A stretch of 34,334 nt of DNA from Rhizaria sp. SCN 62-66 (taxonomy: Eukaryota), in assembly GCA_001724265.1 (NCBI GenBank), contig MEDY01000323.1, positions 1 to 34,334 of the forward strand. Reading direction: 5' to 3'. Of the stretch, positions 118-26,719 are shown piece after piece. The first letter of the stretch is position 1, and every line of letters starts with the position of its first letter. A model generated the notes under the pieces. It was not told the origin of the DNA, ran no database searches, and saw nothing but the letters and a program-made list of their open reading frames with translations. The position numbers and the translations under genes are program-made.

Positions 118-569
118 GGCACCTTGGAGCTACCACTGTCGTCGTCGTCATCAGAAGGCTTGCCGTCTTCGTCCGCATCCTCGTTCGTGGTGATAGCGTT
201 GATCGTCGTGGTGCCGGCGTCATCTGTGTTAGTGATGACCACCGTCGTGGGGATCGTGTTGGCGGGAGCAGCGCCAGCCTTGCCATCGTAGAGGAAGTTG
301 GAGCCGGAGATGTACAATGGCGCCTTGTAAGTCCCAGCCTCGTTGTAGTACCACGCGTAGGTGCTGTGGTCGATCTCCGCGTTGATCAGGGCGTCGATGT
401 AAACGGACGCCTTGGTCGTGGTGCCAGTCTCAGCGAGAGCGGACGCATGGTCAGGGACCTTGGAGGTAAGGTCCTGCTCGCTCTGGTCAACGACGTCAGC
501 CGAGGCCTGGGCGAAGGCCGCCATGCCAAGCATGGAAGCCATAACAACGAGAGAGCGGAGCAAACGCAT
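1..569 (-). CDS. Secreted protein of unknown function with acidic stretch and tandem 9-aa repeats (3' end runs off the window)
   Basis: Not in the ORF track. Manual translation from ATG 569: MRLLRSLVVMASMLGMAAFAQASADVVDQSEQDL...YAWYYNEAGTYKAPLYISGSNFLYDG...DADEDGKPSDDDDDSGSSKVPSKQQDSKTPSKQQDSKT..., open to the window edge. Signal-peptide-like N-terminus and the C/G-ending codon bias of neighbouring genes. Confidence 0.85.
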   Translation of the reverse strand, partial: MRLLRSLVVMASMLGMAAFAQASADVVDQSEQDLTSKVPDHASALAETGTTTKASVYIDALINAEIDHSTYAWYYNEAGTYKAPLYISGSNFLYDGKAGAAPANTIPTTVVITNTDDAGTTTINAITTNEDADEDGKPSDDDDDSGSSKVPSKQQDSKTPSKQQDSKTPSKQQDSKTPSKQQDSKTPSK

Positions 570-1333
570 TGTTAAACACTCTGGAATGAAACAAGGGGCG
601 TAGAGATGACACAACGCATGGGAAAAGTGAGGGAGAGGGAGGAGATCGGATGTTGTGGTGAGCGTGTTTCTAAACCGAGCCTCATACGCAACCCAAAGTG
701 GTATTTTGACTATATCAAAGGAATGTCATATTATTAAGCCATTGGACAACGGCTACAAAGAAAAACACCTAAAGTTTGACCATCCCAATGTGCCTTTTGA
801 CCGGCTCAAAGTGGGATCGACAACACTCCTTTGAGCTTCATTCATCCGGCTTGCTCGCTCGCCGATTTTTTCGGCCCCACTCCTCCACCTGTCAACTCAC
901 TTTAAGATGACAACTCGCGGCAATAGATTGGGAGAGTAAAAAATGCAAGGGTGGTGGGGACATGATACAAATTCATAATTGTATTGTTTTTTGATAGTCG
1001 CACAGACAGACATTGTAGTTCATGTTTCCGCGTCAAGGTACTAGCTCTCGGCGTTACAGTAACCAGGCTCATCATTGTCACGCAAAGCTAGCGAGCTGGG
1101 TTTTGTGAGTAGTTCTTGATACCAGCCACCCGCTTCACATGACATCATCTGCAACATGTGCAATATCTCACAAAGGTCAGGGGGGACGCCGCTCCGGCTG
1201 AGGCTTGCAGCTCAAAATAAAGAGCTCTTCATAAAAAGTCCCCCTCGTCCGTCCGCGTCGGCGTCGTCATCATCATTGTTTCATCATCATACTCGTCATC
1301 ACCACATCGTCTTCATCACAGAGCACCGGGCGC

Positions 1334-1984
1334 TTAGACATCAGCCTCCCAAAGCTCGACCTTGATAGCGACGCTGAAGTACTCAGCGATCTTCTCGGGG
1401 GTCATCGCCTCCTCAATCGTCTCGCCGTTGGGGCGGAGGAGCGAGATGTGGCCTGTGGCCGTGGCCCAGGCGCCCGTGGTGTCCCAGCGGATGACGCCGG
1501 CCTTACCCTCGAAGGGCGTCATCGAGACGCCGCGCTTCTGGCCCTTGGGGGGAACGGCGACGATCGAGGGGGCGCCGAAGTTCTTGTTAAGGTACTGAGG
1601 CACGAAGGTCTTGACACGGTAGATGTGGTTGTTGCCCTTGGCACACGTGATAGACTCGTTGTTGGCCAACTTGGGGATCTTAAGACCCGGGTGGCCCTTC
1701 TCTGCGGCGCAGTTGAAGCACGCCGAGATGCGGATGGCGCAAGTGTTCGTGATCCAGGCCGCGTCGATCTTGCCACCAAGAAGCTTCTTGGGGTTCGACT
1801 TAGGGTAGCAGTCGTCGAGCAGACGGTACTTGGGCATCGACGCGTGCGCGCCACTGACCTTCGTTTGGATCAGAGACGTCGGAACAGCCTCGAGGCGCGA
1901 CTTCGGGAGCGAAGCCGCCGCTGCCAAGCTGATGGAAACCAGCAGGGCCACGAAGAGGAGCACTGCACGGGCACTTCCCTTCAT
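1334..1984 (-). CDS. Secreted Tae4-like (type VI amidase effector family 4, NlpC/P60-type) peptidoglycan amidase; candidate domesticated amidase effector, 216 aa
   Basis: Signal peptide MKGSARAVLLFVALLVSISLAAA. Tae4-like motifs in order: NTCAIRIS (catalytic Cys), HIYRVK..YLNKNFGAP, GKAGVI, W.TATGHISL (catalytic His), terminal VELWE. Intronless CDS, TAA stop. Confidence 0.8.
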   Translation of the reverse strand: MKGSARAVLLFVALLVSISLAAAASLPKSRLEAVPTSLIQTKVSGAHASMPKYRLLDDCYPKSNPKKLLGGKIDAAWITNTCAIRISACFNCAAEKGHPGLKIPKLANNESITCAKGNNHIYRVKTFVPQYLNKNFGAPSIVAVPPKGQKRGVSMTPFEGKAGVIRWDTTGAWATATGHISLLRPNGETIEEAMTPEKIAEYFSVAIKVELWEADV

Positions 1985-2494
1985 ATCACCTACACAACAG
2001 GAAAACAAAGCCGCGGAATAAATACATAAATGATTAGAACATTATAGCCTACAAACTACGCATACAATTAACCGCAAGGGAAAGAGACGGCCTTTAGCGA
2101 CCCCATGGGAACTTCAAAGAAGGACGACTTGTGCCATCATTTCTCTCGAGCGAGCTCGAAAAGCGGTCGGTCGAAAAAGTCTCCTTTATGTCATTCATTT
2201 TTTCAGTCCAGAGCCAAGTCTCAACTTTATTTTCATTCTGGCTCGATATGAAGGCTGAATCAAAGAAGTTTTAGTGGTGCATATTGAGGGTGTTCAGTCT
2301 ATGTTTTTGTTGATATGAACGAGAGTTGATGTGCCATGTATTTTTTTCTCTTTAAATGTGCTCCTTGTTGCGCACACAGAGCAATATCTTCTTCGTATCT
2401 GTCACCCTCCCATCTGCATCTCACTGCCAGCACGCCTGTTTCTCCTTGTTTGGTCGCTTTCACGGGTGTACTTTGCGCTACAGGCAGCGCTACC

Positions 2495-4947
2495 ATGATG
2501 TCCTCCATGCGCACTCGTCTCGCCAAGACCGCGACTACGCTGTCTGGCGCGATCGCGTCGTCCGCCTCCGTCTCGGTCGCTTCGCGCCGTAACCTGGGCA
2601 ACTCGGCCCCCTCTTCGCTCCGCAAGGAGTGGGAGAAGATCGCCGCCAAGGACCTCCGGCAGACCCCTGTCGAGTCGCTCATCTCCAAGACCGCTGAGGG
2701 CATCGACATGAAGCCCATCTACTTTGCCGAGGACGTCCCCGCGTCTGCCGCGCAGGAGCTGCCGGGCCGCTTCCCCTACACCCGCGGCCCCAAGGCCACC
2801 ATGTACACCGTGCGCCCCTGGACTGTGCGTCAGTACGCCGGCTTCTCCACCGCCGAGGCCTCTAACGCCTTCTACAAGCGCAACCTTAAGGCCGGCCAGC
2901 AGGGTCTCTCCGTCGCCTTCGACCTCGCCACGCACCGCGGCTACGACTCCGACAACGCCCGCGTCACTGGTGACGTTGGCATGGCCGGTGTCGCCATCGA
3001 CACGATCGAGTGCATGAAGGTGCTCTTCAACGAGATCCCGCTCGACAAGGTCTCCGTCTCGATGACCATGAACGGCGCCGTCATCCCTATCATGGCCATG
3101 TTCGTCGCCGCCGCGCGCGAGTCTGGCGTCGCCTCCCAGGCCCTCACCGGCACCATCCAGAACGACATTCTTAAGGAGTTCATGGTGCGCAACACCTTCA
3201 TCTACCCGCCCGAGGCGTCGATGCGCGTCATCGGCGACATTATGGCCTACACCTCGACCGAGATGCCCAAGTTCAACTCGATCTCCATCTCCGGCTACCA
3301 CCTCCAGGAGGCCGGCGCCGACGCCGCTCTTGAGCTCGCCTTCACCCTCGCCGACGTACGTTCCAGTTGAAGTTTAAAAAAACATCATGATCTTTTTGTT
3401 TTGTGTATCTCATTGCACTCGTAATGTTTGTGGTTTGTTCGAAGCTCCACGTGATCTCACCTGTACTTAATCGTTGTGCTGTTTTTGTTTCCCCTTAATT
3501 CTAGGGTATCGAGTACGGCCGCACCGGTGTCCGCGCTGGTCTGGACATCGACGCCATTGCGCCCCGGTTCTCCTTCTTCTTCGGCATCGGCATGAACTTC
3601 TACATGGAGGTCGCCAAGCTCCGCGCCGCGCGCAAGCTCTGGGCCAAGCTGATGAAGCAGCACTTCAACCCCAAGAACGAGCAGTCGCTCATGCTCCGTA
3701 CCCACTGCCAGACCTCCGGCTGGTCCCTCACCGAGCAGGACCCCTACAACAACGTCGTGCGCACCACGGTCGAGGCGATGGCGGCCACTCTCGGCGGCAC
3801 GCAGTCGCTGCATACCAACGCTTTTGACGAGGCCGTTGGCCTGCCCACCGACTTCAGCGCCCGCGTCGCGCGCAACACGCAGCTGCTGCTGCAGACCGAG
3901 GCCGGCATCCCCAAGGTCGTCGACCCCTTCGGCGGCAGCTACATGATGGAGGCGCTCACAGAGGCGCTGATCGAGAAGGCCGAGAAGATCATCAACGAGG
4001 TCGAGTCCCTGGGCGGTATGGCTAAGGCCGTCACCTCCGGCATGCCTAAGATGCGCATCGAGGAGGCCGCGGCGCGCAAGCAGGCCCGCATCGACTCCGG
4101 CGAGGACATCATCGTCGGCGTCAACAAGTTCCAGGTTGAGGGCGAGAAGCCCATCGACGTGCTCGTCATCGACAACGCCGCCGTGCGCCAGTCGCAGGTC
4201 GCGCGCCTTGCCGCAGTTAAGGCCTCCCGCGACAACGTCAAGGTCAAGGCGCTGCTCGCCAAGATTACCGAGGCCGCGGCCGACGCGTCCAAGGGCAACC
4301 TGCTCGCCATTGCCGTCGAAGCCGCGCTCGCGCGCGCGACGCTGGGCGAGATCTCCGACGCCATGGAGTCGGTTTTCACCCGTTACGCGCCCGACGCCAA
4401 GCTCGCCGCCGGCGCGTACAAGAGCGAGATCGGCTCCATTTCGAACCCGGAGGACGCGAAGCGCGCCATGGAGGAGGTGCTCGAGCTGCAGAAGCGCTGT
4501 GCCAAGTTCGAGGAGAAGCGCGGCCGTCGCCCGCGTCTGCTGTCGGCCAAGATGGGCCAGGACGGCCACGACCGCGGCGTCAAGGTCGTCTCCACCGGCT
4601 TCGCCGACCTCGGCTTCGACGTCGACATCGGCCCCCTCTTCTCCACGCCCGCCGAGGTCGTGCGCCAGGCGCTCGACGCCGACGTGCACGTCATTGGCGT
4701 GTCGACGCTCGCCGCCGGCCACAAGGCGCTCGTCCCCGAGCTCATGAAGGAGCTCAAGGCCAACAACGCGTCCGACGTCCTTGTCGTCGTCGGCGGCGTC
4801 ATCCCGCCCCAGGACTACGAGTTCCTGTACGAGCAGGGCGTGAGCGCCGTCTTCGGCCCCGGCACGCGCATCCCCGACGCTGTCCGCAAGGTCCTCGACG
4901 CGCTCGACGCGCAGACCGAGAACTCCGGCGTCTCTGCCTCCATGTGA
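2495..4947 (+). CDS. MMUT: Mitochondrial methylmalonyl-CoA mutase (adenosylcobalamin-dependent), 767 aa, 2 exons
   Basis: Exons 2495-3355 and 3505-4947; intron 3356-3504 (GTACGT...TAG) restores FTLAD|GIEY. Motifs [39 protein letters not shown]12-binding QDGHDRG. Ser/Arg-rich presequence. Confidence 0.97.
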
Positions 4948-5270: not shown

Positions 5271-8200
5271 TCACTTTAACATTATCAGCTTCGTAACTGC
5301 ATCACAAATCTCCCTCGCGACAGCCGCAACCACCGTGCCATAACCAACCGTCCTTCGCGGCTTGCCAGCTACCCGTCTTGTTTGCACTGACGCTGCGGTG
5401 ACTGTTGATAACTCCCAGTGTACAGCAGAGTCGCCAGTGCAAACTACCTCAAGTGACAGCCGGCTTGCTAAGCCTGTGTAGTCATAGTCATGTTGTCCAG
5501 CATTAGCGTCTGCGTCAGAAACCGACTCGTCTCTGTTTTGATCAGCAGCAAGAGCACATGCCCACGCAGCAGCCCTCAGTCCCATTGTCGCAAGAGCCAG
5601 AGGCAAGCATTGGACGGCAGCGACTGCAGCAACGGCAGCAGCGGGCGGCAGCGTGAAGAGCACGAGTGAGAACAGCAACGCGCCTGCTAAGCACTGCTCG
5701 CGGTCGAACGCGTTCGAGAACGTGACTTGTGCGCGCAGCGTACTTGTGCGAGCACCGGTGAAGAGACGCGCGAGCACGTGCAGCATTTGCAGGAGCGCCA
5801 ATAAAACGACACAGTACGCATTGGCAAGTGCTGCTGCAACAAAAAGGGGCGGGAGCAAGATGAGGTCGTGTGCGAGTGCCAGGGCAAATGAGGGCGCGGC
5901 AGGGATAGCAAGCATGGCGACCAAGATTATAACAGCGATAAGGAGCTGCGACGTGACCGTGAGCAAAGCAGGGGTGACCGAGAGCAGTGAAATACCTGCA
6001 GTGACTGGTGTCGCTGCGGCAGCTGACAACAGTGCTGTAATAACGCTGTTTGTGAAAGAAACACACGTGATCGCCGTTGCGTTTACCAGTGTGGCTGCAA
6101 TGGCCGCGAGTTGGGCTGCGAATGAGAGCAAAAATCCCAGTACTGTCGCAGCCAGCGAGTGTAGCAAAGCACAGAGAGGCACAATGATACGCACAAGCAG
6201 CACAGCAAAGCGAGAGCTCGTAGAGCGAGAGTTTGACCTCGCACTCGAGCTCGTATTTGTGCTTGCATTGAGCGGCGAAAATGGCTGAGATTGCAGCTCC
6301 AGGTGCGTCTGCGCTGAAGTGAGGGCAGGAAGCCACGGTGAGATACGACAGACAAACCACTGCAACGGAGGCGGAGGCGCGTGCGACTGCTGCTCTGTCG
6401 CAAGCACTGACGGCAACAGAGGCGGAAACAGCGGCAGCAATGCGGACACTGCAGCTTCGACAACACCTGCACCCGAGACAGAGCCACTAACAGAGCTAGT
6501 TGCGCTTTTGCCAGCCGTCGTCGAGGCAGCAGTGGCCCGAGCGATTGCGACAGCAATGGGCGACGACACTGCAGTTGGCGCAGAGTCCGCAGCAACAGTG
6601 TGCTCCGCAGCCGAGTCAGACTTGGCACCAGCGAGCAGGCCAGGGGAAGGACATGCGGCTTCGAGCGCGGCAGGCGTGCCCCAGAGCGCTGCTGCAATGC
6701 CGCCACGGCCGTGAGTCAGCCGCACCGTCGTTGCGGCAAGAGCGAAGGGCGAGCCGTGGCTGGCAGCGGTGATCAGATGCCATAATAAGGCGGCAGGAGA
6801 AGCTGTTACCGCTGGAAGCAAACTTTGTACCGTGAGCAAAAGTGTAATGAGAAGAAACACAGCCAGAAACAGGCGACTAGTTAACTTGGCACTCGCGGTT
6901 CCAGAAAACGTGGATTTGACTAGCTTGTTGTTCATAATCCTGCCACGCTCATTACTGTTATTGTTAATGCATGCAAAACGGGAGACAAGACTATAACGAG
7001 TGAAAGACCTCACAACATTGCCAAAAAGGCCAAGATTATGTGTCATACATTGCATTTCGACACAGATTGGCAGCAAAACAAAGTGCCACGCAAAGCGACC
7101 ACCGATCATGGCCACAAACACAACAGCACTAGAAACAAGTGCAATAACGAAAGCGAGAAGCAATAGCGAAAGATTCAGTGCAAAAAACTGTGGCAGCGCG
7201 ACGAAAACTTGCTGGGCATCGTCTTTAAGCAAAGATAGCGTCGCTGAGTTTGTACTCATCACTGTGTCGGCAACAGCAATTGTGATAGAACTGACAGTAC
7301 AGCTGTTTAGAGCAGTGCTGGCGCAGGACTTAATTGTCTCACTCACAAACAGGGTCGCAGCAACTTGGAGCAGCAGCACAGCACAAATAGCGGCAACAGT
7401 GCTGCTCCACGTTTCACGCCTCTGATGGCTTGACTTCGGCAGCACAGTCACTCCTGGTGTGGCTGTACGCAGCAATAAAACACGTGCGGCCTCAGACTGA
7501 GCTAAGGCAGCAGCAGTTGCCACAGCGGCATCACTCTTAGGAAACACGTTGAAACCCTTCTCAGTATCTTTGCTCACGCCGGAGCTGTTCGTAGCTGCGA
7601 GTCCTAGCGCGCAGAGCAAAGAGTGGGCTCGCGCGCGAGACAACAGAGGCAGCAGCGGGGGCAACGGCACAGCAGCCGCCGCAAGTGACCAAGGGCAGTA
7701 CCAGACCACAGCCGCGTAATGCTGTTTAGTCGGCACAGAGCTACAAACACCTGGAGCTCGGAGGGACAAGCGCCAGCACGCAGTAACGCTGTCAGAAACG
7801 CTATGCTTGTTATTGCTGGTATTTGCAATTTTGAACAACGGGAACGAAAACAAGACTTCAGCAATAGCAATCGGTTCACTGTTATTTCCGCTTAAAATAG
7901 TGGTGTTTTCGTTATTATAAGGGTTGTCGGTGTCGCTCGCAGTGCTAAGTGACAGCTCAGCGTGGCCAACAACACGTAACGCCTGCGACGAGTGTGATGT
8001 GGCGACTTCATGTTCGTTGTTGGGGGTGACAGCAGCAGCAACAACCCATCGATCCTTACCACAGCTAGCCGCATTGTTCAACGGAGTGTTTACATGGCCA
8101 ACCGCGCTGTCAGCGCTAGATCTCGAGCTCGAGCTCAAGCTCGGGTTGAAGCTTGACTGCGAAGATGTTGTTGATTGCGACTGCGACAAGAGTAACTCGG

Positions 8201-8612
8201 TGTTTGGAGGTGCAAAGCAGCGAGACGAGCGGCGTAATTGCTGTTGTTGTGGCTCTAGTGCTCGCTGCCTCTGCGCTTGTCGAGAGTGAGACTCCGATTG
8301 CTGCCTTGTGTGCTGAGGCTGATGCCGCTTCTCTGGTGTGGTGAAACTCGCCACATCCCCACAAGCTCCACCAGAGCTGCGAGACGCGGCAATGTGCCAT
8401 CCAAGTAAACACAGACGCGCGCGTGGCGGCAGCTGAGACTGCTGTAAAGACGTCACGGCTGAGAGAGATTTGGGGGGAGTTGGTTGGGGTTGTTGCTGTT
8501 TGCGGGGAGAATCGGCTTTGGGAGATTGTAGAAGCGTGATAGCTGTTATTGATAGGGCATCCCGGAGTTCAGTCGGGAGATACACGACTGGTTTAGTGTA
8601 AAAGGCCTCCAT
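5271..8612 (-). CDS. Large multi-pass membrane protein with a divergent PIG-Q/Gpi1 (GPI-GlcNAc transferase subunit)-like C-terminus, ~1113 aa
   Basis: 3.3-kb uninterrupted ORF, first ATG 8612. Segment ALAHDLILL...LARLFTGARTSTLRAQV..FDREQCLAGALLFSLVLFTLP resembles the Gpi1 pattern LFxGKKxNxLRxR...QLLLGTLLFxxLxFLxPT. Many hydrophobic segments; the remainder is low complexity. Confidence 0.6.
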   Translation of the reverse strand: MEAFYTKPVVYLPTELRDALSITAITLLQSPKADSPRKQQQPQPTPPKSLSAVTSLQQSQLPPRARLCLLGWHIAASRSSGGACGDVASFTTPEKRHQPQHTRQQSESHSRQAQRQRALEPQQQQLRRSSRCFAPPNTELLLSQSQSTTSSQSSFNPSLSSSSRSSADSAVGHVNTPLNNAASCGKDRWVVAAAVTPNNEHEVATSHSSQALRVVGHAELSLSTASDTDNPYNNENTTILSGNNSEPIAIAEVLFSFPLFKIANTSNNKHSVSDSVTACWRLSLRAPGVCSSVPTKQHYAAVVWYCPWSLAAAAVPLPPLLPLLSRARAHSLLCALGLAATNSSGVSKDTEKGFNVFPKSDAAVATAAALAQSEAARVLLLRTATPGVTVLPKSSHQRRETWSSTVAAICAVLLLQVAATLFVSETIKSCASTALNSCTVSSITIAVADTVMSTNSATLSLLKDDAQQVFVALPQFFALNLSLLLLAFVIALVSSAVVFVAMIGGRFAWHFVLLPICVEMQCMTHNLGLFGNVVRSFTRYSLVSRFACINNNSNERGRIMNNKLVKSTFSGTASAKLTSRLFLAVFLLITLLLTVQSLLPAVTASPAALLWHLITAASHGSPFALAATTVRLTHGRGGIAAALWGTPAALEAACPSPGLLAGAKSDSAAEHTVAADSAPTAVSSPIAVAIARATAASTTAGKSATSSVSGSVSGAGVVEAAVSALLPLFPPLLPSVLATEQQSHAPPPPLQWFVCRISPWLPALTSAQTHLELQSQPFSPLNASTNTSSSARSNSRSTSSRFAVLLVRIIVPLCALLHSLAATVLGFLLSFAAQLAAIAATLVNATAITCVSFTNSVITALLSAAAATPVTAGISLLSVTPALLTVTSQLLIAVIILVAMLAIPAAPSFALALAHDLILLPPLFVAAALANAYCVVLLALLQMLHVLARLFTGARTSTLRAQVTFSNAFDREQCLAGALLFSLVLFTLPPAAAVAAVAAVQCLPLALATMGLRAAAWACALAADQNRDESVSDADANAGQHDYDYTGLASRLSLEVVCTGDSAVHWELSTVTAASVQTRRVAGKPRRTVGYGTVVAAVAREICDAVTKLIMLK

Positions 8613-9056
8613 TGTGAGAGGCAATGAGGGGAAACCCTTGTCGGGCTGGAAAAAAAAGACGGGTTGGCAGCCGTTGAAGATCACCTAGACGAGAGTAAGA
8701 TAAACAACCTGGCAAATTGAGTTAATCAAGTATTCAGAAAATGCGAATAATTGGATGAAATGATCGTAGTTATAAAAACCTGCCGTGTCAAATTAAGCCG
8801 GAATAACGGACACTGCAGTGTATTTGAGATCATATTAAATACTAGGTAAACGAGGCGCGGACTCTATCAATCAGAGGTATTGAGGCCGCGAGCGCCTTCA
8901 GTAAGAGACGCAATTTCTAAGTGCAGAATGTGCCAGAAATATTGTTATCTCGCACATAATGGCACTATGAGTACTAGATACCTTGACACTCGGCCATAAT
9001 AGCACAAAGCTCAGATAGTCGAGATATCCTAAGGGTGCAAGCATGGAGAGGAGCTT

Positions 9057-10092
9057 TCAAACATTCGTCGCGCGCGCCTTCTTGCCTTTACCCTCCGGCT
9101 GCACAAGACTCGTGGTGTCGTCCTTCTCAAGCACGTACAACACCGACGCGGCCTCCGCGTTGGCCTTGGCCTCCGCAGCGGCGGCGACGTCAGCCGGAAG
9201 CTTCAGTTTGGACCGGTCGAATGTGAACTCGGTGGCGTTGCGCCAGGCAGTGTTGATCGTGTCGGTGACCGACTCGTCTGAAAGAGCGACATATCGTGAT
9301 ACGATGATGAAATATTGGTGTGTGAGTTCAGTTGCGTCAGTAGGATCTGATAAAGTGTTGTGAGAGTAGCGAAGAGTGGAACAGTTTTCTTGCGGAGATC
9401 TGAGTGAGATGAGGAACGTACCGTCCGCAGTCATCAGGCGGTAGGCAATGTAGCCGCCGAGACCAAGCCAGAAGATGACGGTCCAGCCCTCGAAGAAGAG
9501 AAGCCAGCGCGACATGCGGTGCATCTTGTCCTTAGGGTTGGCACGGGCGCGAGACAGCTTGCTGCTGCTCGTCATAGCCTGCGTAAGAGTCGAAAGAAAC
9601 AAAACAAAGACAAAAAATGTGTCAGCACTATATCCATAAAGTACACTAAAGATTCAGCCGAGAATTTGCTGTTCAGTAGAGCGAGCTTGTGCGAGTGTCT
9701 CGAGAACATGCCTTAAACTCCTTTATCTTGTTGTGGCTGTCTTGAGCGACAGCGGCGGCGGCGGCCTCGGCCTCCTTGGCGGCAACCTGGGCGCCGAACG
9801 CCTTCTCAATCGAGTCGTCAAGCGAAGGCGCAGACCCTGCGGGAGTGCGCGCACCACCGAACGAGATACCACGCTGATGGGCTGCAACAACCACGGGAGA
9901 AGTGAGGAGAAGAGAGTGTGAACGTAGAGTAGTCCGACTGGTGCTCATCGTGGCAGAAATGGCAGCCGCACGGCTACGCTTAGTAACAGCAGCCAAAGAG
10001 CTCATCAGACTCTTAGGCAGGGCAGCAGAGGATAGCAGGGCACTGCTGCAGCTGCTGCCGAGAGCCATGAGCCGGTGGCTAGCAGAGAGCAT
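9057..10092 (-). CDS. Putative mitochondrion-targeted single-pass membrane protein of unknown function, 252 aa, 3 exons
   Basis: Exons 10092-9712, 9578-9422, 9277-9057; introns 9711-9579 (GCATGT...CAG) and 9421-9278 (GTACGT...CAG). Ser/Arg/Ala-rich, acid-free N-terminus (MLSASHRLMALG...) and one TM segment WTVIFWLGLGGYIAY. Confidence 0.7.
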
Positions 10093-10661
10093 TCCTTTCA
10101 CCGAGAAAAACGCAAAATGAGAGAAGTTCATGGTGAGGACAATCGTCAACAACAAAACAAATGAAACTACAAAACAATAAAAATAAATTAAATAACAAAT
10201 ATGCGAATTATAAATCAACATCAAATAGGCATGTACCAGAAAATTGCTTAATAGTTGCCCCCTCAGCGGTCACACGGTCAATTAGTCAGTCGGTCGGATC
10301 GGAGCAGTGACCGTGAGCAGCGGCTTGACTTCGGTATTTGGGAGGAGGAACGGAGGCTTAATTTTTCTCGAGGGGTCTGATGGACTGGGAGAAAATGTGT
10401 CTAGCGGGTCGAGACGAAGCTGTAATGTCTATTGGTATCAACTTCCACAATATTCAGAAGTTGACGTATTCAGTTTTTCATTCATGACCCGCCTGTGGGT
10501 GCTGCAGGACGCAATTTAGAGCAAGTTAGTTCGACGATCGTCCCCTTTTAGAGAGGGGACCACCAGCCCTTTTCTTCATTGCCCTTGTGTGCCTTTCCAT
10601 GACGATGCTCACGGCTGTGGAGTTCTTTATTACTTTCTTTGTGTCTTGTTGTAGGGTGACA

Positions 10662-13600
10662 ATGCGCATCAAGGTCGCAGTCGCTTTTGTCATGGCCATT
10701 TTGGCCATGGCATGGGCTGCTGCTGAGCCCGAGGTGAGCGCCTTGCAGTCCGCCAGTGCCTCCTCCCAGGAGGTTCTTGCGCTGGACAGCGATGTTGCGT
10801 ACGAGATCAACGATATGTTCGATACGTCTCTCGTCGAGGTACGTTCCCTCTTTCAGATCCCAACTAAATCCGACCCCATTTGCCCCTTGAAATCCGTTCC
10901 GGTAGGAGCCACCCCATGCCGACCCTGGTCTCCTTTGCACGTTGCTTACCTTCCGACTTTACCCACCTTTTCCCCCCAATTTCGCCCTTGCTTTATAGAC
11001 TGATGCTGAGGCTGAAGTCGAGATTGACTCCGAGTCTGAGTCTGAGGTCGAGCGCCGCCGCCGCCGTCGCCGTGGTGGCCGTCGCTGCCGCAAGCTCCGC
11101 CGCCGCCAGCGCCGCCAGCTCAAGAACCTCCGCCGCCAGCTTGCTGCTCTGAAGAAGCGTGGCAAGACTGCTCGCAACAAGTCTTTCCGCCGTGTTCGTA
11201 AGGCCATCCGTCGCCTCCGTGGCTGCCGTGGTGGCCGCCGTGGACGTCGTGGAGGCCGCCGCTGCCGCAAGCTCCGCCGTCGCCAGCGCCGCCAGCTCAA
11301 GAACCTGCGTCGCCAGCTTGCTGCTCTGAAGAAGCGTGGCAAGACTGCTCGCAACAAGTCTTTCCGCCGTGTTCGTAAGGCCATCCATCGCCTCCGTGGC
11401 TGCCGTGGTGGCCGCCGTGGACGTGGTCGTAAGCTCACTCCTGCCCAGCGTGCCCGCCTCATCCGCCTACGCCGCACTCTTAAGACGCTCCGCCGCTCCC
11501 GTCAGGGCAAGTCTCCTCGCGCCAAGAAGATCCGCCGCGCGATCCGCAAGCTCACCGGTGGCCGTCGCCGCCGTGGTGGCCGCAAGCTCAACCCTGCCCA
11601 GCGCGCTCGTCTTAACAAGCTTCGCCGCACTCTCCGCCAGCTTCGCCGCTCCCGTCAGGGCAAGTCCCCCCGTGCCAAGAAGATCCGCCGTGCGATCCGC
11701 AAGCTCCGTGGTGGTCGCCGTGGCCGTGGCCGCAAGCTCAACCCTGCCCAGCGCAAGCGCGTGAAGGACATCCGCCGCAAGCTGCACGCTCTCCGCCGCA
11801 CTAAGCAGACCAAGTCTGCTCAGTTCCGCCAGCTGCGCCGTGCTCTCCGCGCCCTCGTCGGCCGCCGCCGTGGCCCCCGCATGACCCCTGCTCAGCGCCG
11901 CGCCCGCAAGGCGCTCCGCCGCCAGATCAAGGCGTTCCGCGGCGACCGCAAGAGCAAGCAGTTCCGCAAGCTTCTCCACCGCGCCCGTGCTATCAAGCTC
12001 CAGGCCAAGCGCAACGCCATGCGCCACCGCGTCCAGAAGATCAAGAAGGCCCTCAAGCAGCTCCGTGCCCGCAACCAGACCAAGACTGCTGCGTACCGCA
12101 AGCTCCGCGCCAAGCTGGCTCACGCCCGCCGCCGCGTAGCTGGCCGCAACCGCCTCAACCCTGCTGAGCGTGCCAAGCTTGCCAAGCTCCGCCGCCGCCT
12201 CCGCAACATGCGCCGCTCTCGCCAGACCAAGACTGCTGCTTACCGCCGCACTCGCCACGCCGTCAAGCGCCTGCAGACCAAGGCCCGTGGCCGTCTCCCG
12301 CGCCTCAATGCCGTCCAGCGCCGCCGCGTCCAGAAGCTGCAGGCCGCGCTCCGTAGCATGCGCCGTGCCCGCCAGACCCGCTCGTGGCGCTACCGCAACA
12401 CCCGCGCCAAGATCAACCGCGTCTACGCGCAGGCCCGCCACCAGATCTGGGTCCGCAACCACCGCAAGCACCTGATGCGCCGCATCCGCAAGACTCAGCG
12501 CAAGCTTAACCAGCTTAAGGTTGTTGGCAAGACCAAGGGCCGCACCGTTCGCCGCCTCCAGCGCCGCCTGAACCGCCTTCGTGCGGCTCACCGCCACCCC
12601 CGCTGGCTCTCTGCCTACGCCAAGAAGCAGATCCGCATCCTCAAGAAGCGTCTCCGCCGCATGCGCAAGGCCCAGAAGACCAAGTTCCCCAAGTACCGCA
12701 AGCTCCGCCGCCGCCTCGCTCACATCCGCAAGCACGGCGCTAAGAAGCCCCGCTCCCTTGGCCGTCACCTCCTGGTCCGCATGCAGCGCGCCCTCAACAA
12801 GCTCCGCGCCACCGGCCAGGGCACCTCGAAGCAGGCCCGCAAGCTCGTCCGCCGCATCAACAAGGTCCGCCGCATCTCTCGCAAGATGGTTAAGGCTCGC
12901 AAGAGTGGTAACCGCATCCTGTTCAACAAGCTCCGCCAGAAGCTCCGCAACATGGCCCGCCCCGCGCGCCCCATGACCCTCAAGCAGCGCATCCGCCGCC
13001 TGTCGAACCGCATCCAGAAGATCAGCAACCACCTTAACCGCGCCAAGGCGACTGGTGACAACCAGAAGGTCGAGCGCCTCACCAAGAAGGTCGAGCGCAT
13101 GCGCTCCAAGATCGAGAAGCTCCGTCGCCGCCAGGAGATGGATGACCGTTTCAAGGTTATGGGCACTACCAACCAGAACAACTCGACCCGTGGCTCCCGC
13201 AGCTCCTTCACTGGCCGTCCCTCCCGCGTCACGCGCCGCTTCCTCCGCAACACTAACAGCATCGCCAGCCGCCTCGCGGCGATGGCCGGCTCGGCCCAGA
13301 ACCAGGAGATGGTGAACAAGATCAAGGAGGTCCAGACCCGTATCTTCTCTGCCCGTGCCACGATTGCCCGTCGCATGAAGGCGGCCAAGGTCATGAAGGC
13401 CCGTGCCATGCGCATGGCCTCCAAGGCCGAGTACGACAAGAAGCGCTACGAGGTCCGCCGCTCCCGTAAGTGGCTCCGTCGCCTCCGCCGCGACCGCCGC
13501 CGTGCCGCCAAGCTGAACCGCCGCGCCGAGCGCCAGGCCAAGTACGCCCAGAGCATTGCCACCCGCGCCCGCACCGCGATCAAGGCTGACCGCGTTGTCG

Positions 13601-14010
13601 CCAACACCCAGCACCTCCAGCTCCGCGACGCGCTCCCCGCCGAGGCCCGCCCTCTGCTCGACGAGCTCGCGCAGTCGTACACCAACGCCGAGAACCAGAT
13701 CCGCGGCGAGATCCAGCAGCACCGCGTGCCGCCCACCAACATCGAGTACGTGCCCCCCGCCAAGACGGCCCCCATCCAGGCCATGGTCAACACCGCGGCC
13801 GCTCCCGTCACCGCCCTCCCCGGCTCCAAGCTCCCTGCCCCCGGCACCGGCCTGCTTGTTGACCCCAACTACAAGGGCATGACCGCGGCTCAGGCTGAGG
13901 CGATGTATGCGCGGCTTCGCGAACAAAACAAGTATCGAGATTTCTCTAGCGAGTTCATCGATAAGCACCTCGGCACTACTGCCCAGATCCCTCCTTCCAA
14001 CACGGTCTAA
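10662..14010 (+). CDS. Secreted, extremely Arg/Lys-rich helical-repeat protein with acidic pro-region, 1062 aa, 2 exons
   Basis: Exons 10662-10838 and 10999-14010; intron 10839-10998 (GTACGT...TAG). Exon 2 is in frame with the 11761..14010 ORF. Signal peptide MRIKVAVAFVMAILAMAWA, acidic ...SLVE|TDAEAEVEIDSESESEVE, then RRRRRRRGGRRCRKL... Strong CGC/AAG/CTC codon bias. Confidence 0.9.
11074..11760 (+). repeat. Internal coding repeats of the cationic protein: a 177-bp near-perfect duplication, then ~150-bp units
   Basis: CRKLRRRQRRQLKNL starts at 11086 and 11263 (period 177). RKL(T/N)PAQR starts at 11428, 11581 and 11731 (periods 153 and 150). Confidence 0.9.
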
Positions 14011-14267
14011 GTGTGCACACAAGAAAAAAGATGAAACAGGAGATGGTTGTCGTATACGTCTTTCGTCTCGGCACTGCAGAAAGAACTTTGTGTAGTGCTT
14101 TTGAACTCTCTTCTTTTCAGTATCTACCGTGTCCTCAAAAGTGTGTGTGTGTTGTATCAAAGCGTTTTGGATTCTGACTCTGTTCTTCAGTGTTGGTTTG
14201 TGGTCGGAGGAATGAAAAAATGTATGCAGCTACAGCTTATGTGCTTACAACTCTTTTTATACAAAAC

Positions 14268-14348
14268 GATAATCAGTTTATTACAAAATACCCCCTCAAC
14301 AACTCAAAGATAATCAGTTTATTACAAAATACCCCCTCAACAACTCAA
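14268..14348. repeat. Tandem duplication of a 40-bp sequence (period 41) downstream of the cationic-protein gene
   Basis: gataatcagtttattacaaaataccccctcaacaactcaa at 14268 and at 14309, identical. Confidence 0.9.
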
Positions 14349-14860
14349 TAATAGTGTGTTTTTTACCAGCCTGCTCTGCTCGGGATCTCAGTTTCGCTCC
14401 TTCCCGGAGCGTGAGTCAAGGGCGATGTGTTTCGACCATGCACCGTTGGAATTCAACGTAATTTTGATGTTTGCTATGAATATTGAGTTGAATTTTTATG
14501 GATGTATGCTCTCCCTTATTCATCACTCCGAAATTTGTCATAGAGATGGATATTAAGAAAGCATTTTAGATCGGCCATCGCCGAGTGGTGTGAGCCCTGT
14601 GGCTCCACAACTACGATCACAGGACGTTGCCCTAAAAAGTATTGTAAACAGCATGCTTGAAATCCCCTACATTACACACATTCAAGACTCTTCATGTCAA
14701 CTTGAAACGAAAGAACAGTCACATCTTGCGTCAGTAACCTCACCTGTTTCCCGTCGTTTGCCCTCGCTTACACTGACCTCAACCTACTTCTTTTGCCGAC
14801 TGATAAAGCCTCACCCCAGAACAAGTTTGGGCTGCCTACAGGCTTCATCGCAACGAAAAC

Positions 14861-15898
14861 ATGAGCGGGCGTGGTGTTAAGCGTGCCACAAAGCCGCCCG
14901 CGCAGCCTAGTACGTCGAAAGATATCATCATTTGTCGCACGCTCCTCCTTCGCACCACTAGTCTCTCCCATGGACTCTCGCACCTTCTAACACATCTTTC
15001 AACTTGTATTTTATCATTCGAACCTGCTCTTGTTTCTTTAGAAGCGGCGAAGGGTGCCAGTGCGCGCTCCGCTGCCGCTGCAGCGTCCGCCGCCTCCGCG
15101 AGCGCTGACGGCGATAACGACAACGACGACGACGATGATGACGGCGACGCCAAGGGTGGCAGCAAGTCCCGCGGTGAGAAATCCCTCGGTAAGATCACCC
15201 AAAAAGTTGTTGAGCTTCTTAAGTCTTCCCCCGACGGCGTTGTTGATCTGAACCAGGCCTCGATCGAGCTCGACGTGGCCAAGCGCCGCATGTACGACAT
15301 CACGGCCGTGCTGGAGGGCATCGGAGTTATCGACAAGCGCGGCGTCAACTCGATCCAGTGGCGTGGCTCCGACTCGGACGCTCAGTCGCGCACGCAAGAG
15401 CTGCAGGCCGAGTACGCCGGTTACGAGCGCGAGGAGCGCGAGCTCGACGAGCAGCTCGCGCGCATGCAGCGCACCGTCGAAGGGCTGCTAGCGCCGCAGA
15501 ATCCTGACAACAGGCACGTGTTCATCAGCCCCGCGGACCTGATGGACGTGCGCGCTTACCGCGACTCCGGTCTGCTCGCGCTCAAGGCGCCCGCCGGCGC
15601 GCTGCTCAACATGATGGAGCCCACCGTGGAGGCGCTGAACGCCGCCGCAGCCGCTAGGGCGGCGCTGGCTAACGGCAATGGCAGCGCGAGTGCGGGCGCT
15701 GGCGCGACTGAGGCTGGCGTTAAGACCGAGTCGCAGCATCACTTGTATCATGAAGAGTTCATGCCGTATAAGATTTACGTCAAGTCTGAGCACGGACAGG
15801 TCGAAGTAAGTATGCAACAACTCCAGAGTTCGGGCAGCGGTGCGGTGAAGGCTCAGGAACGCGAGGTTGAGGTGAAGCTTGAGGGTACTGAGAATTGA
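14861..15898 (+). CDS. E2F: E2F-family transcription factor, ~301 aa, 2 exons
   Basis: Winged-helix domain RGEKSLGKITQKVVELL..DGVVDLN...KRRMYDITAVLEGIGVIDK...IQW, then coiled coil and marked-box-like YKIYVKSEHGQVEV. In-frame intron 14910-15041 (GTACGT...TAG, 132 nt). Confidence 0.92.
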   Translation: MSGRGVKRATKPPAQPSTSKDIIICRTLLLRTTSLSHGLSHLLTHLSTCILSFEPALVSLEAAKGASARSAAAAASAASASADGDNDNDDDDDDGDAKGGSKSRGEKSLGKITQKVVELLKSSPDGVVDLNQASIELDVAKRRMYDITAVLEGIGVIDKRGVNSIQWRGSDSDAQSRTQELQAEYAGYEREERELDEQLARMQRTVEGLLAPQNPDNRHVFISPADLMDVRAYRDSGLLALKAPAGALLNMMEPTVEALNAAAAARAALANGNGSASAGAGATEAGVKTESQHHLYHEEFMPYKIYVKSEHGQVEVSMQQLQSSGSGAVKAQEREVEVKLEGTEN

Positions 15899-18800: not shown

Positions 18801-19216
18801 ACAAAAACTTGACTTTGAATAAAGAAAGTATTTTTATCGCATGACAAATAATATGTGAACGCTAAGATAAAACAAAACTACAATCAAAAATCTCAAGATA
18901 TGTTTACAAAGCCAATAAAGCGACTCTCTGAATTCAGCCTCTCCACAGGTTGTAGCAGGTGGGTGTGCGGAAAGCTGGGCGAACCTCAGGCCCGTCGGGA
19001 CCGTGAGCCGGCCCCAATAGACACCGCTGAGTACGCGCTTGCGGAGGAGAGAAAAATTTGAATTTTCGAATTCTGCCTGAGTTAAAAACTTACGGCTTTT
19101 CCAACTTAAACTCGTGCGACACGACTTTATTTCACGAACAAATGACTTGATCTCATCTTTTTATTTGTTTTCATATTTCCTGCACTTCTGCGCTGCGTAT
19201 ATTTAGTAGTAAAACA

Positions 19217-19804
19217 ATGTCTACTTTCGAGAACATGGTTTTCGAGGCCATCGCTGCCCTCAAGGAGCGCAACGGCTCCTCGCGCCCCGCCATCAAGAAG
19301 TGGCTCGAGGCCAACAAGCCCGAGGCTGCCAAGAGCGACGTCTTCGAGCGCAACCTCAAGGCTGCGTTCAAGCGCATCCAGGACAAGGAGCTCGTCACCG
19401 TCGTCGGTGCTTCCTTCAAGCTCAACGATGCTTCTAAGGCTGCTGTCAAGAAGGCTGCTGGCGCTGCCAAGAAGGCCGCTGCCCCCGCCAAGAAGGCTGC
19501 TGCTAAGAAGCCCGCTGCCAAGAAGGCCGCCGCCCCTAAGAAGGCTGCTGCCCCCAAGGCTGAGAAGGCTGAGGCTGCCCCCAAGAAGGCTGCCGCTGCC
19601 AAGAAGCCCGCTGCTAAGAAGGCTGCCCCCGCCAAGAAGGAGGCTGCCGCTAAGAAGGCTGCTCCCAAGAAGGAGGCTGCCCCCGCCAAGAAGCCCGCCG
19701 CGAAGAAGGCTGCTGCTAAGCCCGCTGCCAAGAAGGCTGCTGCTAAGCCGGCTGCCAAGAAGGCTGCCCCCAAGGCCGCCGCCAAGAAGGTCTCCAAGAA
19801 GTAA
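19217..19804 (+). CDS. H1: Linker histone H1, 195 aa
   Basis: Globular domain TFENMVFEAIAALKERNGSSRPAIKKWL...GASFKL followed by a Lys/Ala/Pro-rich tail (KKPAAKKAA repeats). Confidence 0.95.
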   Translation: MSTFENMVFEAIAALKERNGSSRPAIKKWLEANKPEAAKSDVFERNLKAAFKRIQDKELVTVVGASFKLNDASKAAVKKAAGAAKKAAAPAKKAAAKKPAAKKAAAPKKAAAPKAEKAEAAPKKAAAAKKPAAKKAAPAKKEAAAKKAAPKKEAAPAKKPAAKKAAAKPAAKKAAAKPAAKKAAPKAAAKKVSKK

Positions 19805-24898: not shown

Positions 24899-26232
24899 TC
24901 AATACTGCGGCACGTCGAACTCGTAGGGCAGCAGCAGCTCAAGCGCCTGCTTGAGCTTTGCGATGGCGGTGGGCACGTCGTCGAAGTTGAGCGAGGACGA
25001 CACGTGGCGCGAGAGCCTGTCGGCCTCTTTGCACGCCGCGCCGCGCGACGCCGCGCCCGTAGGGTTGGGCGTGACCGTGAGCGGCGCTCCAGGCCCTGGC
25101 CGGCCAGTCACGCCAGGGGCGCGCGCGCCGGACGGGGACGCGGCCGAAGACGCGGCCGACGCCGGCGAGTACTGCGGCTGATGCTGCTGCGGCTGGTAAG
25201 AAGGATACTGCTGCTGCTGCTGAGGCTGCTGCGGCTGCTGAGGGGAGTGAGACGCGGGGGCAGCGGCGGCGGCAGGCGGGTAGCCGTACGCAGGCGGCGC
25301 GGGCGCGGCAGCAGGCGCGGCAGCGGGCGCGGGCGCGGGCGCGTGGTAAGGCGCAGGGGCAGGCGCAGGCGCAGGGGCAGCAGCGGGCTTGGGGGCGGGC
25401 TTGGGGGCGGCGCCAAGCGAGGACGACGACAGCGAGGACGAAAAGCTGTTGCTGTGCGCACCGGGGGTCTGCAGCTGGCTCAGCGCGGCCGTCAGCGCGT
25501 CCTCCTCGGCCTCCGCACCGCCGCCAGCGCCGGCGTTGGCGGCGCTGGCGTTGGGGTCGAGGTCGCCGGGGCCGCCGGGGGTGGGCGCGACGCCCGCTTT
25601 GATGGCGCGGCGGATGTCCGCGACCTTCCACATCGCATACGCGGCCTTCTGCTCGACGTCGGGCTCGGGAGGTCCGAACTGGAGCGCGACCTCGAACAGC
25701 ACGGCGGCAGAATAAAAGCACTTGGCCGTGTCCATATCCGCCGCGCCCTTGCGGTCCTCCTCATCGGCGTTCGCGAAGAGCGTCAGCGCAAAAGACTCAA
25801 GGTGCGCGCGACGTTCGTCGCGGGGCACGCCAGCGAGCGAGTTGTTGTTCTCGAGCCAGTCCATCAGCGAGACCAGGTAGCCCGTGTCGGCAGGGGTGCG
25901 CTTTTGCACCTTGAGGCCCTCCTGCGCCGCGTACGTGCGGCCTGGGCGGGGGGCAAGAGATGGGGATCAAAACAAAGGAACAAAAAGGGGCACGCTTGAG
26001 AAAGATATGCAAGACATGATAGAGTTTAGTGTAGAATTGAGACAATATAAGTGAGATTGAGAGCAAATATTGAAGTGTTGAGAGAAACATCGAAGCTCGT
26101 GTCAAAGCCAAGAAGAGGCAGACACGTACACATATGAGCGACCTTAGGGTCAAGCTTCTCAACTTGCTTCGCCTGAACAAGGAACTTCTTGATGTTCTTC
26201 ATCTCAGGGGAAAGGACCGCGATGTTGTCCAT
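24899..26232 (-). CDS. VTA1: Vta1/LIP5 (ESCRT Vps4 activator), 381 aa, 2 exons
   Basis: Exons 26232-26130 and 25941-24899; intron 26129-25942 (GTACGT...CAG) gives DPKVAHMC|RTYA. MIT region (LMDWLE, FALTLFANADEEDR, YAMWKVADIRRAIKAG..PTPG), Pro/Ala/Gln linker, VSL-like SRHVSSSLNFDDVPTAIAKLKQALELL. Confidence 0.92.
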
Positions 26233-26719
26233 GGTAGCGGGGGATCTAAGGAGCAAGAGTGGCACACGACGAGGGTCAGGAGGTGAGCGAAACCAAGGGA
26301 GGTATTTGGCACTACAGAAGACATTTCCAAGTTGTGTCATATATAAAGGGTATATAAAATAATATATTATAACGGAAACAGCTTGATTTGAAAACAGAGA
26401 CGGATGGAGCAGAGAAATCTATAAGTTCAAAATTGCACAGTCCCCTCAACCACAAAAATCTGGCTCTTGTGGTGCGGCATGTTGCCTCTGAAAAAGCTGC
26501 CTATATCACACCACCACCATCGTGAAGTTGCCTGCGAGCGCTGCTCTGGGACTGCCTCGTACTAAATCTTAGAGAATCATATGTCGTATGCACCCCATCT
26601 TTTGTACAGCGCTCACGATTCCTACCACAAATACTCCCTCTTTCACCCACCGCAGAGTTTCCTAGAACCTGTATCTTTCCTCTACCAGCCCCGTTCTCGC
26701 GCGTAGTTCGCCTTCTCTC

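Follow-up and report, generated by a model that had tools for sequence, protein, structure and literature searches.

A spliced gene for a predicted secretory-pathway polycation of hairpin repeats in a microbial eukaryote

What use could a eukaryotic cell have for a chain of about 1060 residues that carries a net charge near +300 and begins with an apparent secretion signal? The question is raised by a gene on the plus strand (positions 10662-14010) of a 34,334-nucleotide (nt) stretch of DNA from Rhizaria sp. SCN 62-66 (contig MEDY01000323.1), referred to here as the window. A first-pass annotation, made from the letters alone, had described a secreted, strongly cationic helical-repeat protein and had suggested a polyprotein of membrane-active hairpins. 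Its gene model, signal, acidic piece, arginine switch, helical units and lack of a known family have stood; its proposals of membrane activity, of a flanking Cys pair, of a link to an amidase and of silica templating have not. The gene is real: it belongs to the nuclear genome of a microbial eukaryote, has two exons, and is spliced and expressed. Its model is validated from two directions, by a splice joint in contigs of public sequencing runs and by an intronless homologue. As to function, we lean, with rather less than even confidence, towards a secretory-pathway polycation whose hairpins would fold on polyanions and which may have an antibacterial, agglutinating or capture role, either intact or partly processed.

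Gene model and a single relative

Contigs of four public runs (X1, X3, X4 and X13) were aligned to positions 10300-14400. X3 is a polyA metatranscriptome, X13 comes from the same study with no library kind on record, and the X1 library is labelled RNA-Seq cDNA, but was guessed to be possibly DNA. The gene is laid out as follows.

10662-10838 (+): exon 1, ATG at 10662, 59 codons for 59 amino acids (aa), ending GAG/GTACGT at 10838
10839-10998 (+): intron, 160 nt, GT..AG, joint 10838/10999 in X3 and X1 contigs
10999-14007 (+), with stop codon 14008-14010: exon 2, 1003 codons stop-free, directly behind ...TATAG
14011-14207 (+): 3′ untranslated region; contigs reach over 14025-14207 (X3), 14020-14198 (X1) and 13858-14114 (X4)

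The splice joint occurs in contigs of two of the four runs, X1 and X3, which belong to two studies. One 505-nt contig of X3 skips exactly 160 nt at the joint, with 338 and 167 nt on its flanks, and one 565-nt contig of X1 bears the same 160-nt GT..AG joint, whereas a 2116-nt contig of X13 is colinear from 10300 and runs unspliced into the intron as far as 10908. The same T>C difference at 10793 is common to all three contigs, so the spliced and unspliced forms come from one strain, as expected of RNA against DNA or pre-mRNA. The first-pass annotation had made its signal peptide depend on the joining of exon 1 to exon 2, and both that joint and its coordinates are confirmed. The spliced product has 1062 aa, and the 3′ untranslated region is about 200 nt long, the contigs ending at about 14207. 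Just past this last contig cover, at about 14262-14350, lie two tandem copies of an AT-rich motif of about 40 nt (…ataatcagtttattacaaaataccccctcaacaactcaa…).

Variation and codon use also mark the frame as coding. Of the base differences listed for run contigs against the window, 24 in all, 17 by hand count occupy codon position 3 of this frame, and the sole listed indel is an in-frame 6-nt deletion at 11561, within a Gly/Arg linker, in the X3 and X13 contigs. The effective number of codons is 31, against 28-43 in seven neighbouring gene segments, and codon use is thus native; A occupies 1% of third codon positions, 240 of the 242 Arg codons are CGC or CGT and all 106 Lys codons are AAG. Near-identical sequence occurs in wastewater, activated-sludge and biofilm sequencing libraries.

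Two kinds of candidate were set aside. A 920-aa antisense open reading frame (11467-14229, minus strand) has no Pfam match, and the GT..AG joint puts the transcript on the plus strand; we read this frame as a shadow of codon bias. Joints with sides of 20-32 letters (11072>13476, 11753>12361 and others) were taken as repeat or foreign-contig artefacts.

A scan of metagenome contigs yielded a single related locus, L001, on a 3932-nt contig. It consists of one uninterrupted plus-strand reading frame (252-3620) with a stop codon directly upstream of the start (VT-MRVKVAVAFVMALL...), and the protein read from that Met has 1120 aa. In a global alignment 450 of 1028 aligned positions (44%) are identical between the two products. 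L001 has no intron at the position of the window's exon joint, and its signal, acidic piece, Arg run and repeats run straight through, which confirms the splice model from the second direction. Ahead of the genes the DNA of the two loci is unrelated; similarity sets in only some 7 nt short of the ATG (GGTGAC[A/T]ATGCGC), and from there the two are nearly identical through the signal-peptide codons. A pyrimidine run and TAG lie just upstream of this conserved start region at both loci and could be the acceptor, at about 10654 in the window, of an intron in the 5′ untranslated region.

Beyond L001, searches for relatives were negative. In Pfam the window protein gave nothing above cutoff, its one match, to DUF1090, scoring 16.4 bits where 24.4 are required; the L001 protein and C-terminal pieces likewise gave nothing above cutoff, and none of the curated helical-repeat profiles in Pfam (HEAT, ARM, TPR, PPR, Sel1 and others) matched above its gathering score. 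NCBIfam returned sub-threshold matches only, to the ribosome-associated YibL (25 bits against a cutoff of 110) and to an SMC coiled coil. Among PDB sequences the best match of the window protein was importin alpha at E 0.69, and a two-sequence profile retrieved de novo designed helical proteins only (best E 3.4e-05). In a collection of 5.8 billion proteins there was no relative among 8000 scored candidates for the whole protein, and none among 8000 scored candidates when a 13-unit repeat profile was run against longer proteins. An exhaustive phmmer search of 1.84 billion representative proteins retrieved nothing but the C-terminus of the query itself, as an identical 200-aa fragment, and neither the whole protein nor residues 690-1003 had a usable match in the ESM Atlas. 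Pattern scans of prokaryotic genome contigs (194 stretches) and viral contigs (135 stretches) contained no relatives, and the literature, as far as titles and abstract openings go, offered no comparable protein. The window protein, with its one relative, is best described as a new orphan family, in keeping with the first-pass annotation, which had recognised no family and had left room for a match to a known one; none appeared in Pfam, NCBIfam, the PDB or the 1.84-billion and 5.8-billion collections.

The designed proteins retrieved from the PDB (6xss, 8f6r and 7unj; 6xr1, DHR series) share with the window protein idealised Leu/Arg/Lys/Ala helices in regular hairpins. They are however artificial, near-neutral and stable folds, and the likeness is compositional and architectural, not evolutionary.

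Charge, repeats and the two ends of the protein

The product can be divided into the following parts.

10662-10718 (+): predicted signal peptide, residues 1-19, MRIK followed by 14-17 uncharged hydrophobic residues and a small-residue site, AWA/AA
10719-10838 (+): acidic piece, exon 1 part, residues 20-59, defined by composition, partly conserved in L001
10999-11052 (+): acidic piece, exon 2 part, residues 60-77, TDAEAEVEIDSESESEVE, defined by composition
11053-11073 (+): residues 78-84, seven consecutive Arg at which acidic gives way to polycationic sequence; a six-Arg run stands at the same place in L001
11074-11427 (+): two 59-aa units, residues 85-143 and 144-202, tandem copies with two Cys each
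11428-13056 (+): eleven further units of about 45-53 aa, residues 203-745; helix 1 L..L...L..L, loop RQ[TG][KR][TS]P, helix 2 [YF]..L...[LI]..L, then a Gly/Arg or basic linker
13057-13224 (+): transition region, residues 746-801; one final, degenerate helix, the onset of acidic residues and an Asn/Ser/Thr/Gly-rich stretch of low confidence
13225-13725 (+): predicted long antiparallel helical bundle, residues about 802-968, moderately basic and conserved (model helices 184-350)
13726-13851 (+): Pro-rich low-confidence linker, residues about 969-1010, shorter in L001
13852-14010 (+): C-terminal module and stop, LVxPNxKGMT...RLREQNKYRDFS..IDKHLGTTA, highly conserved

The whole product holds 350 K/R against 49 D/E, a net charge of about +301, with 22.9% R, 10.1% K and 4.3% S. 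Its core (residues 78-745) has 280 K/R and only 3 D/E in 668 residues, as the first-pass annotation had anticipated in speaking of several hundred residues almost free of acidic ones; the longest stretches without D/E in the protein are 296 and 238 residues. The L001 protein is closely similar, with 358 K/R, 45 D/E, a net charge of +313 and no Cys, and its core of 743 residues contains 274 K/R and a single D/E. The exclusion of acidic residues has evidently outlasted 56% sequence divergence, and because it was kept while more than half of the positions changed, charge itself appears to be under selection.

Ahead of the core stands the only hydrophobic segment that hydropathy identifies in either protein. 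Its uncharged run (residues 5-21) has a Kyte-Doolittle mean of 2.41, and it has two basic residues ahead, an acidic flank behind and small residues at candidate -3/-1 sites; 16 of 21 residues of the signal segment are identical in L001. Judged heuristically, the proposed signal-like N-terminus is thus upheld. The acidic piece (residues 22-77) has 18 D/E and no K/R among 56 residues, a net charge of -18, and gives way directly to the seven Arg, so that the abrupt switch described earlier is real; in L001 the corresponding piece has 15 D/E and 2 K/R in 55 residues and is followed by six Arg.

The core itself is a repeat array. A profile seeded on three clear units recovered the others, and 13 units of about 48 aa, each a helix-loop-helix, were then aligned. 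The resulting profile finds 13 units in the window protein and 14 in L001 (independent E-values 6e-15 to 2.5e-4). On the L001 core 14 units score at least 8 bits, the best 42.9 bits, whereas in 200 of 200 residue shuffles of that core no unit reached 8 bits (best shuffle domain 3.3 bits), so the repeat is more than composition. Over the 27 units, columns 2, 10, 13, 17, 20, 38 and 41 are hydrophobic at a frequency of at least 0.93 and columns 31 and 34 at 0.78-0.81; D/E is at most 0.04 in every column, and in most of the remaining columns Arg, Lys, Gln, Asn or Ala prevail. These statistics agree with the unit consensus given earlier. The hydrophobic spacing of 3-4-3 in each helix is the a/d pattern of a two-helix coiled coil, and the hydrophobic periodicity peaks at 3.5 residues. 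In a single-sequence AlphaFold2 model each of the first five to six units forms two helices, the first of about 15-27 residues and the second of about 14, joined by a loop of 6-8, and later units partly fuse into long continuous helices; the helices mostly have a predicted local distance difference test score (pLDDT) of 70-87 and the Gly/Arg linkers fall below 50.

Only 9 of the 48 unit positions are hydrophobic, as a narrow a/d stripe, and 18-residue windows have a mean Eisenberg hydrophobicity of about -0.4 to -1.7. This pattern is closer to that of arginine-rich polyanion binders than to that of amphipathic antimicrobial peptides, and it speaks against the membrane-active hairpins of the first-pass annotation.

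The N-terminal part of the array is dynamic, as seen in the differing unit numbers of the two proteins, in the 6-nt deletion and in a contig of X1 that skips 177 nt (within 11210-11388), exactly one 59-aa unit. The two 59-aa units are identical at 170 of 177 nt, contain 30 and 28 K/R and no D/E, and are best explained by a recent tandem duplication; the skip is either an assembly collapse of this tandem or a one-unit allele. Tandem Repeats Finder reports a 153-nt period over 11422-11754. The N-terminal units look like recent duplications within each lineage, and contigs at 90-95% identity to the window in X3 and X13, taken with the array variants, indicate the coexistence, in those samples, of related strains or species whose arrays vary. 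From about residue 490 on, units align one-to-one with those of L001, with 49% identity over residues 546-750.

Cys occurs only at positions 89, 135, 148 and 194, one at each end of the two 59-aa units. The charge and Cys positions of the first unit are therefore as first described, but the Cys pair has no counterpart in L001, and a disulfide staple is thus not a family feature. In plant alpha-hairpinin precursors, multi-module chains of helix-loop-helix peptides are stapled by CX3C...CX3C disulfides. The window protein resembles these precursors in its tandem helix-loop-helix modules behind a signal peptide, some alpha-hairpinin modules being Arg-rich as well, but it lacks the double-Cys motifs and has only four single Cys in two units.

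The C-terminal half was modelled with its L001 orthologue as a second alignment row (A3), giving a mean pLDDT of 71.4 and a predicted template modelling score (pTM) of 0.49. The last repeat units reach pLDDT 87-96, and model residues 184-350 form four long helices at pLDDT of about 71-93. The neutral, Pro-rich character first ascribed to the C-terminus is seen in 7 Pro among residues 951-1000. The last 50 or so residues, which are modelled with low confidence, are the best-conserved stretch of the protein, and this C-terminal module has no Pfam match. Foldseek against the PDB found nothing at E <= 0.001 for the C-terminal model; the best match had E 0.19, and designed helical proteins again stood among the top rows, all at E >= 0.19. 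A wide VIA fold search returned generic helical bundles only (best Z 13.2; 87 chains at Z >= 8). Values of Z under about 13 are common for helical bundles, and the TTYH extracellular domain, the McpS sensor domain and the AhlC pore-forming toxin component, at Z 13.2, 11.9 and 11.5, lie in or close to this common-bundle range.

Possible functions of the polycation

How might such a chain be made and used? The signal segment would take it into the endoplasmic reticulum. Under the charge-difference rule, a negative flank behind a signal favours N-in/C-out insertion, and the acidic piece would hold the signal's C-flank negative so that insertion in this orientation precedes emergence of the polycation; in this way the acidic piece probably lets the signal peptide insert correctly. 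A comparable order is found in the proform of eosinophil major basic protein, a protein of the secretory pathway whose acidic N-terminal pro-piece stands ahead of a toxic, very basic part and masks it. Here, however, the acidic piece (-18) is too small to neutralise a charge of about +300, the cationic part is a helical repeat rather than a C-type lectin, and the Pfam and PDB sequence searches revealed no homology.

With like charges on all faces except a thin Leu/Ile seam, the hairpins would be unlikely to be stable alone, and they probably fold and pack on polyanions. Dense Arg/Lys, near-absence of acidic residues and probable folding on polyanions are shared with protamines, linker-histone tails and arginine-rich RNA-binding motifs. 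Protamines and linker histones are nuclear and have no secretion signals, whereas the window protein has an ordered 48-residue repeat with a heptad seam; the linker-histone globular domain (PF00538) matches neither homologue, and the same model detects the window's own H1 gene. Once set free, whether outside the cell, in a phagosome or in a secretory compartment, an array of about +300 would coat, bridge and condense polyanions. Candidate targets would be bacterial envelopes (lipopolysaccharide, teichoic acids), extracellular DNA and the acidic polysaccharides of flocs and biofilms, which are the abundant polyanions of wastewater, activated-sludge and biofilm habitats, both outside a cell and within a phagosome. 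Agglutination, killing or capture of bacteria would be a likely outcome, as by a very large secreted protamine. The fast-evolving, copy-variable N-terminal units would supply bulk charge, and the one-to-one conserved C-terminal units, the bundle and the end module would serve assembly or anchoring.

A bolder extension, which we consider doubtful but worth stating, is that the protein may be the first example of a new class, secreted proteins that are "supercharged" by nature. A protist that feeds on bacteria or lives in biofilms would export the helical-hairpin array, of about +300 and templated by polyanions, as an intact chain. The array would then kill, condense or bridge targets with a polyanionic coat, be they bacteria, extracellular DNA, polyphosphate or acidic polysaccharide, and the acidic leader would make its export topologically possible.

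Several observations weigh against a secreted polyanion binder. The status of the signal peptide was judged by inspection and simple hydropathy, and the segment, with 17-19 uncharged residues in a row, could serve as a signal anchor rather than as a cleavable signal. In-frame upstream ATGs at 10600 and 10606 lie inside an X3 contig that starts at 10499; they have no counterpart in L001, which makes 10662 the conserved start. The two proteins contain five and one N-glycosylation sequons, respectively, none of them in common. The single-sequence AlphaFold2 model has a pTM of 0.25 and no global fold, which makes any packing of the hairpins tentative. A crude Nei-Gojobori ratio of nonsynonymous to synonymous change (dN/dS) is near 1 in the repeat region and gives no positive support for constraint at the residue level; the ratio was abandoned as a test because a proportion of synonymous differences (pS) of about 0.48 and a third-position GC content (GC3) of 0.82-0.88 make the values unreliable. 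Family and fold searches brought no homology with a bearing on function or on the target polyanion, and with two known members neither taxonomic spread nor co-occurrence can be used.

The rivals, in order of weight, are a granule, wall or adhesive matrix, a cleaved polyprotein, an intracellular nucleic-acid binder, a cell-penetrating effector and a silica template. The first of these, unlikely on balance but deserving serious consideration, would give the protein a structural or packaging role in the secretory pathway. It would condense the acidic cargo of extrusomes or secretory granules, or form an adhesive, cyst-wall, theca or stalk matrix that adheres to negatively charged surfaces by complex coacervation. 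The chain is large and repetitive, its predicted long bundle of helices and its conserved end module would suit assembly, extreme charge is kept rather than exact sequence, and attached growth is common in biofilm and activated sludge, from which the runs that contain the sequence come. Yet the neighbourhood, with a mitochondrial-looking protein, E2F, methylmalonyl-CoA mutase and a large membrane-like reading frame, shows no evident gene for an acidic partner, and the titles and abstract openings that were surveyed contain nothing comparable to such a matrix protein.

We are more sceptical of the main idea of the first-pass annotation, that kexin/furin-type convertases cut the Arg run and the Gly/Arg linkers and so free membrane-permeabilising hairpins of about 45 residues. 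Precursors of cationic antimicrobial peptides are built of a signal, an acidic propiece and a basic site, as in frog-skin preprodermaseptins and defensin propeptides, or as multi-copy polyproteins such as apidaecin. Both the window protein and L001 keep this order, with cationic helical sequence and a repeated cationic unit behind the Arg site, and the seven-Arg run is a possible convertase site. The first five or so linkers are Gly/Arg-rich and of low confidence in the model, hence probably exposed, and unit number varies, as it does in peptide polyproteins. Part of the earlier comparison is thus retained, namely the signal and an acidic propiece ending at a basic site, but the broad hydrophobic face is missing: the thin a/d stripe and strongly negative mean hydrophobicity are unlike typical membrane-active peptides. 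There is also no sequence relationship to such precursors and there are no acidic spacers between units, and the cationic part, at about 670 residues and a net charge near +280, contrasts with peptides of 10-50 residues. Potential [KR]R cleavage sites are everywhere (74 in the window protein, 87 in L001) and do not distinguish the linkers, later units are joined by helical or non-Gly linkers, and the conserved, non-repeat C-terminal half, with its bundle and end module, points to a function of the intact chain.

Could the N-terminus be no secretion signal at all, and the protein an intracellular binder of nucleic acids in the nucleus, nucleolus or an organelle? We regard this as improbable. 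A content of about 33% Arg/Lys with Gly/Arg stretches does resemble that of arginine-rich RNA/DNA binders, the sub-threshold matches (YibL and the SMC coiled coil) are all to basic helical proteins, and the upstream ATGs in the window transcript are in frame. But the N-terminal segment, its small-residue sites and its acidic flank are kept in L001, where the frame is closed just upstream, and an acidic flank is atypical of mitochondrial or plastid presequences.

Still less credible is a secreted, cell-penetrating effector that enters a eukaryotic host or prey and acts on nucleic acids or nucleoli. Arginine-rich helices are classic cell-penetrating sequences, and the protein combines a signal and an N-terminal acidic region with many R-x-L-R strings (38 R.L strings were counted); R-x-L strings are however expected by chance at this composition, parasitism or predation on eukaryotes has no support for the organism, and a length of 1062 aa is unlike that of known translocated effectors of this kind. 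The idea of a template for silica or other biomineral deposition we all but discard: polycations precipitate silica in vitro and the protein bears a secretory signal, but its charge comes mainly from Arg (22.9%) rather than Lys (10.1%), Ser is at 4.3%, this composition does not fit the Lys- and Ser-rich repeated motifs of silaffin/cingulin-type proteins, which are modified in diatom silaffins, and neither silica-making by the organism nor the earlier suggestion of templating finds specific support.

Genomic neighbourhood and significance

The window is eukaryotic nuclear DNA, with coding blocks of 65-73% GC and AT-richer spacers between them; it contains no tRNA and no Rfam family. The following neighbours were identified.

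1337-2041 (-): Tae4-like amidase (Pfam Tae4, E 2.1e-11, 44.4 bits against a cutoff of 27), with a signal-like start, MKGSARAVLLFVALLVSISLAAAAS
2330-3367 and 3505-4944 (+): methylmalonyl-CoA mutase (Pfam)
14861-15895 (+): E2F (Pfam)
19151-19801 (+): linker histone H1 (Pfam, E 2.7e-14)
24902-25966 (-): Vta1 (Pfam)
26666-30553 (+): mitochondrial carriers (Pfam)
30892-33150 (-): organellar-type tyrosyl-tRNA synthetase (TyrRS; Pfam)

The Tae4-like frame (Tae4 being the type VI secretion amidase effector 4) has no NCBIfam match and resembles a peptidoglycan amidase of bacterial origin that a eukaryote has domesticated. The first-pass annotation had supposed that the polycation complements this amidase in killing bacteria. 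The two genes are about 8.6 kb apart with three other genes between them, and because proximity at that distance means little in a eukaryote, the link carries little weight.

Other parts of the window are of separate interest. On the minus strand, 5274-8684 is a 1137-codon stop-free frame, rich in Ser/Ala/Leu and membrane-protein-like in its many long hydrophobic stretches, with no Pfam or NCBIfam match. Also on the minus strand, 9060-10269 contains two open frames that resemble one gene divergent from the polycation gene; neither has a Pfam match, and the N-terminus of the upstream frame of the pair is presequence-like and rich in Ser/Ala/Leu/Arg. Between 16000 and 19000 lies a spacer of about 3 kb (35-45% GC), unusually long for a window that is gene-dense elsewhere, with no open frame of at least 110 codons. 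The carrier region at 26666-30553 (+) is a single 1296-codon frame with six Mito_carr repeats (E 1.4e-119), twice the usual three, and represents either two tandem carriers in one frame or a fused double carrier. For the TyrRS, of bacterial/organellar type, the best named eukaryotes reach only 35-45% identity (Salpingoeca rosetta, Raphidocelis, Capsaspora, Chlamydomonas eustigma, Ramicandelaber and Obelidium), a scatter of choanoflagellate, filasterean, fungal and green-algal sequences, and bacteria stand at similar identity, with no close sequenced relative in the collection searched.

If the reading of the polycation gene as one for a secreted polyanion binder is correct, its product would be an extreme natural secreted polycation, of about 1060 residues and a net charge near +300, with a repeat regular enough to seem almost designed. 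Such a protein would reveal by what means a eukaryote translates and exports so basic a chain, it may point to a protist strategy towards bacteria, extracellular DNA or the floc matrix in wastewater, and it could offer a modular natural scaffold for polyanion binding. Irrespective of function, the gene, whose model is validated, defines a new orphan family, and further members may be sought with its repeat profile and with the signature conserved at the C-terminus.

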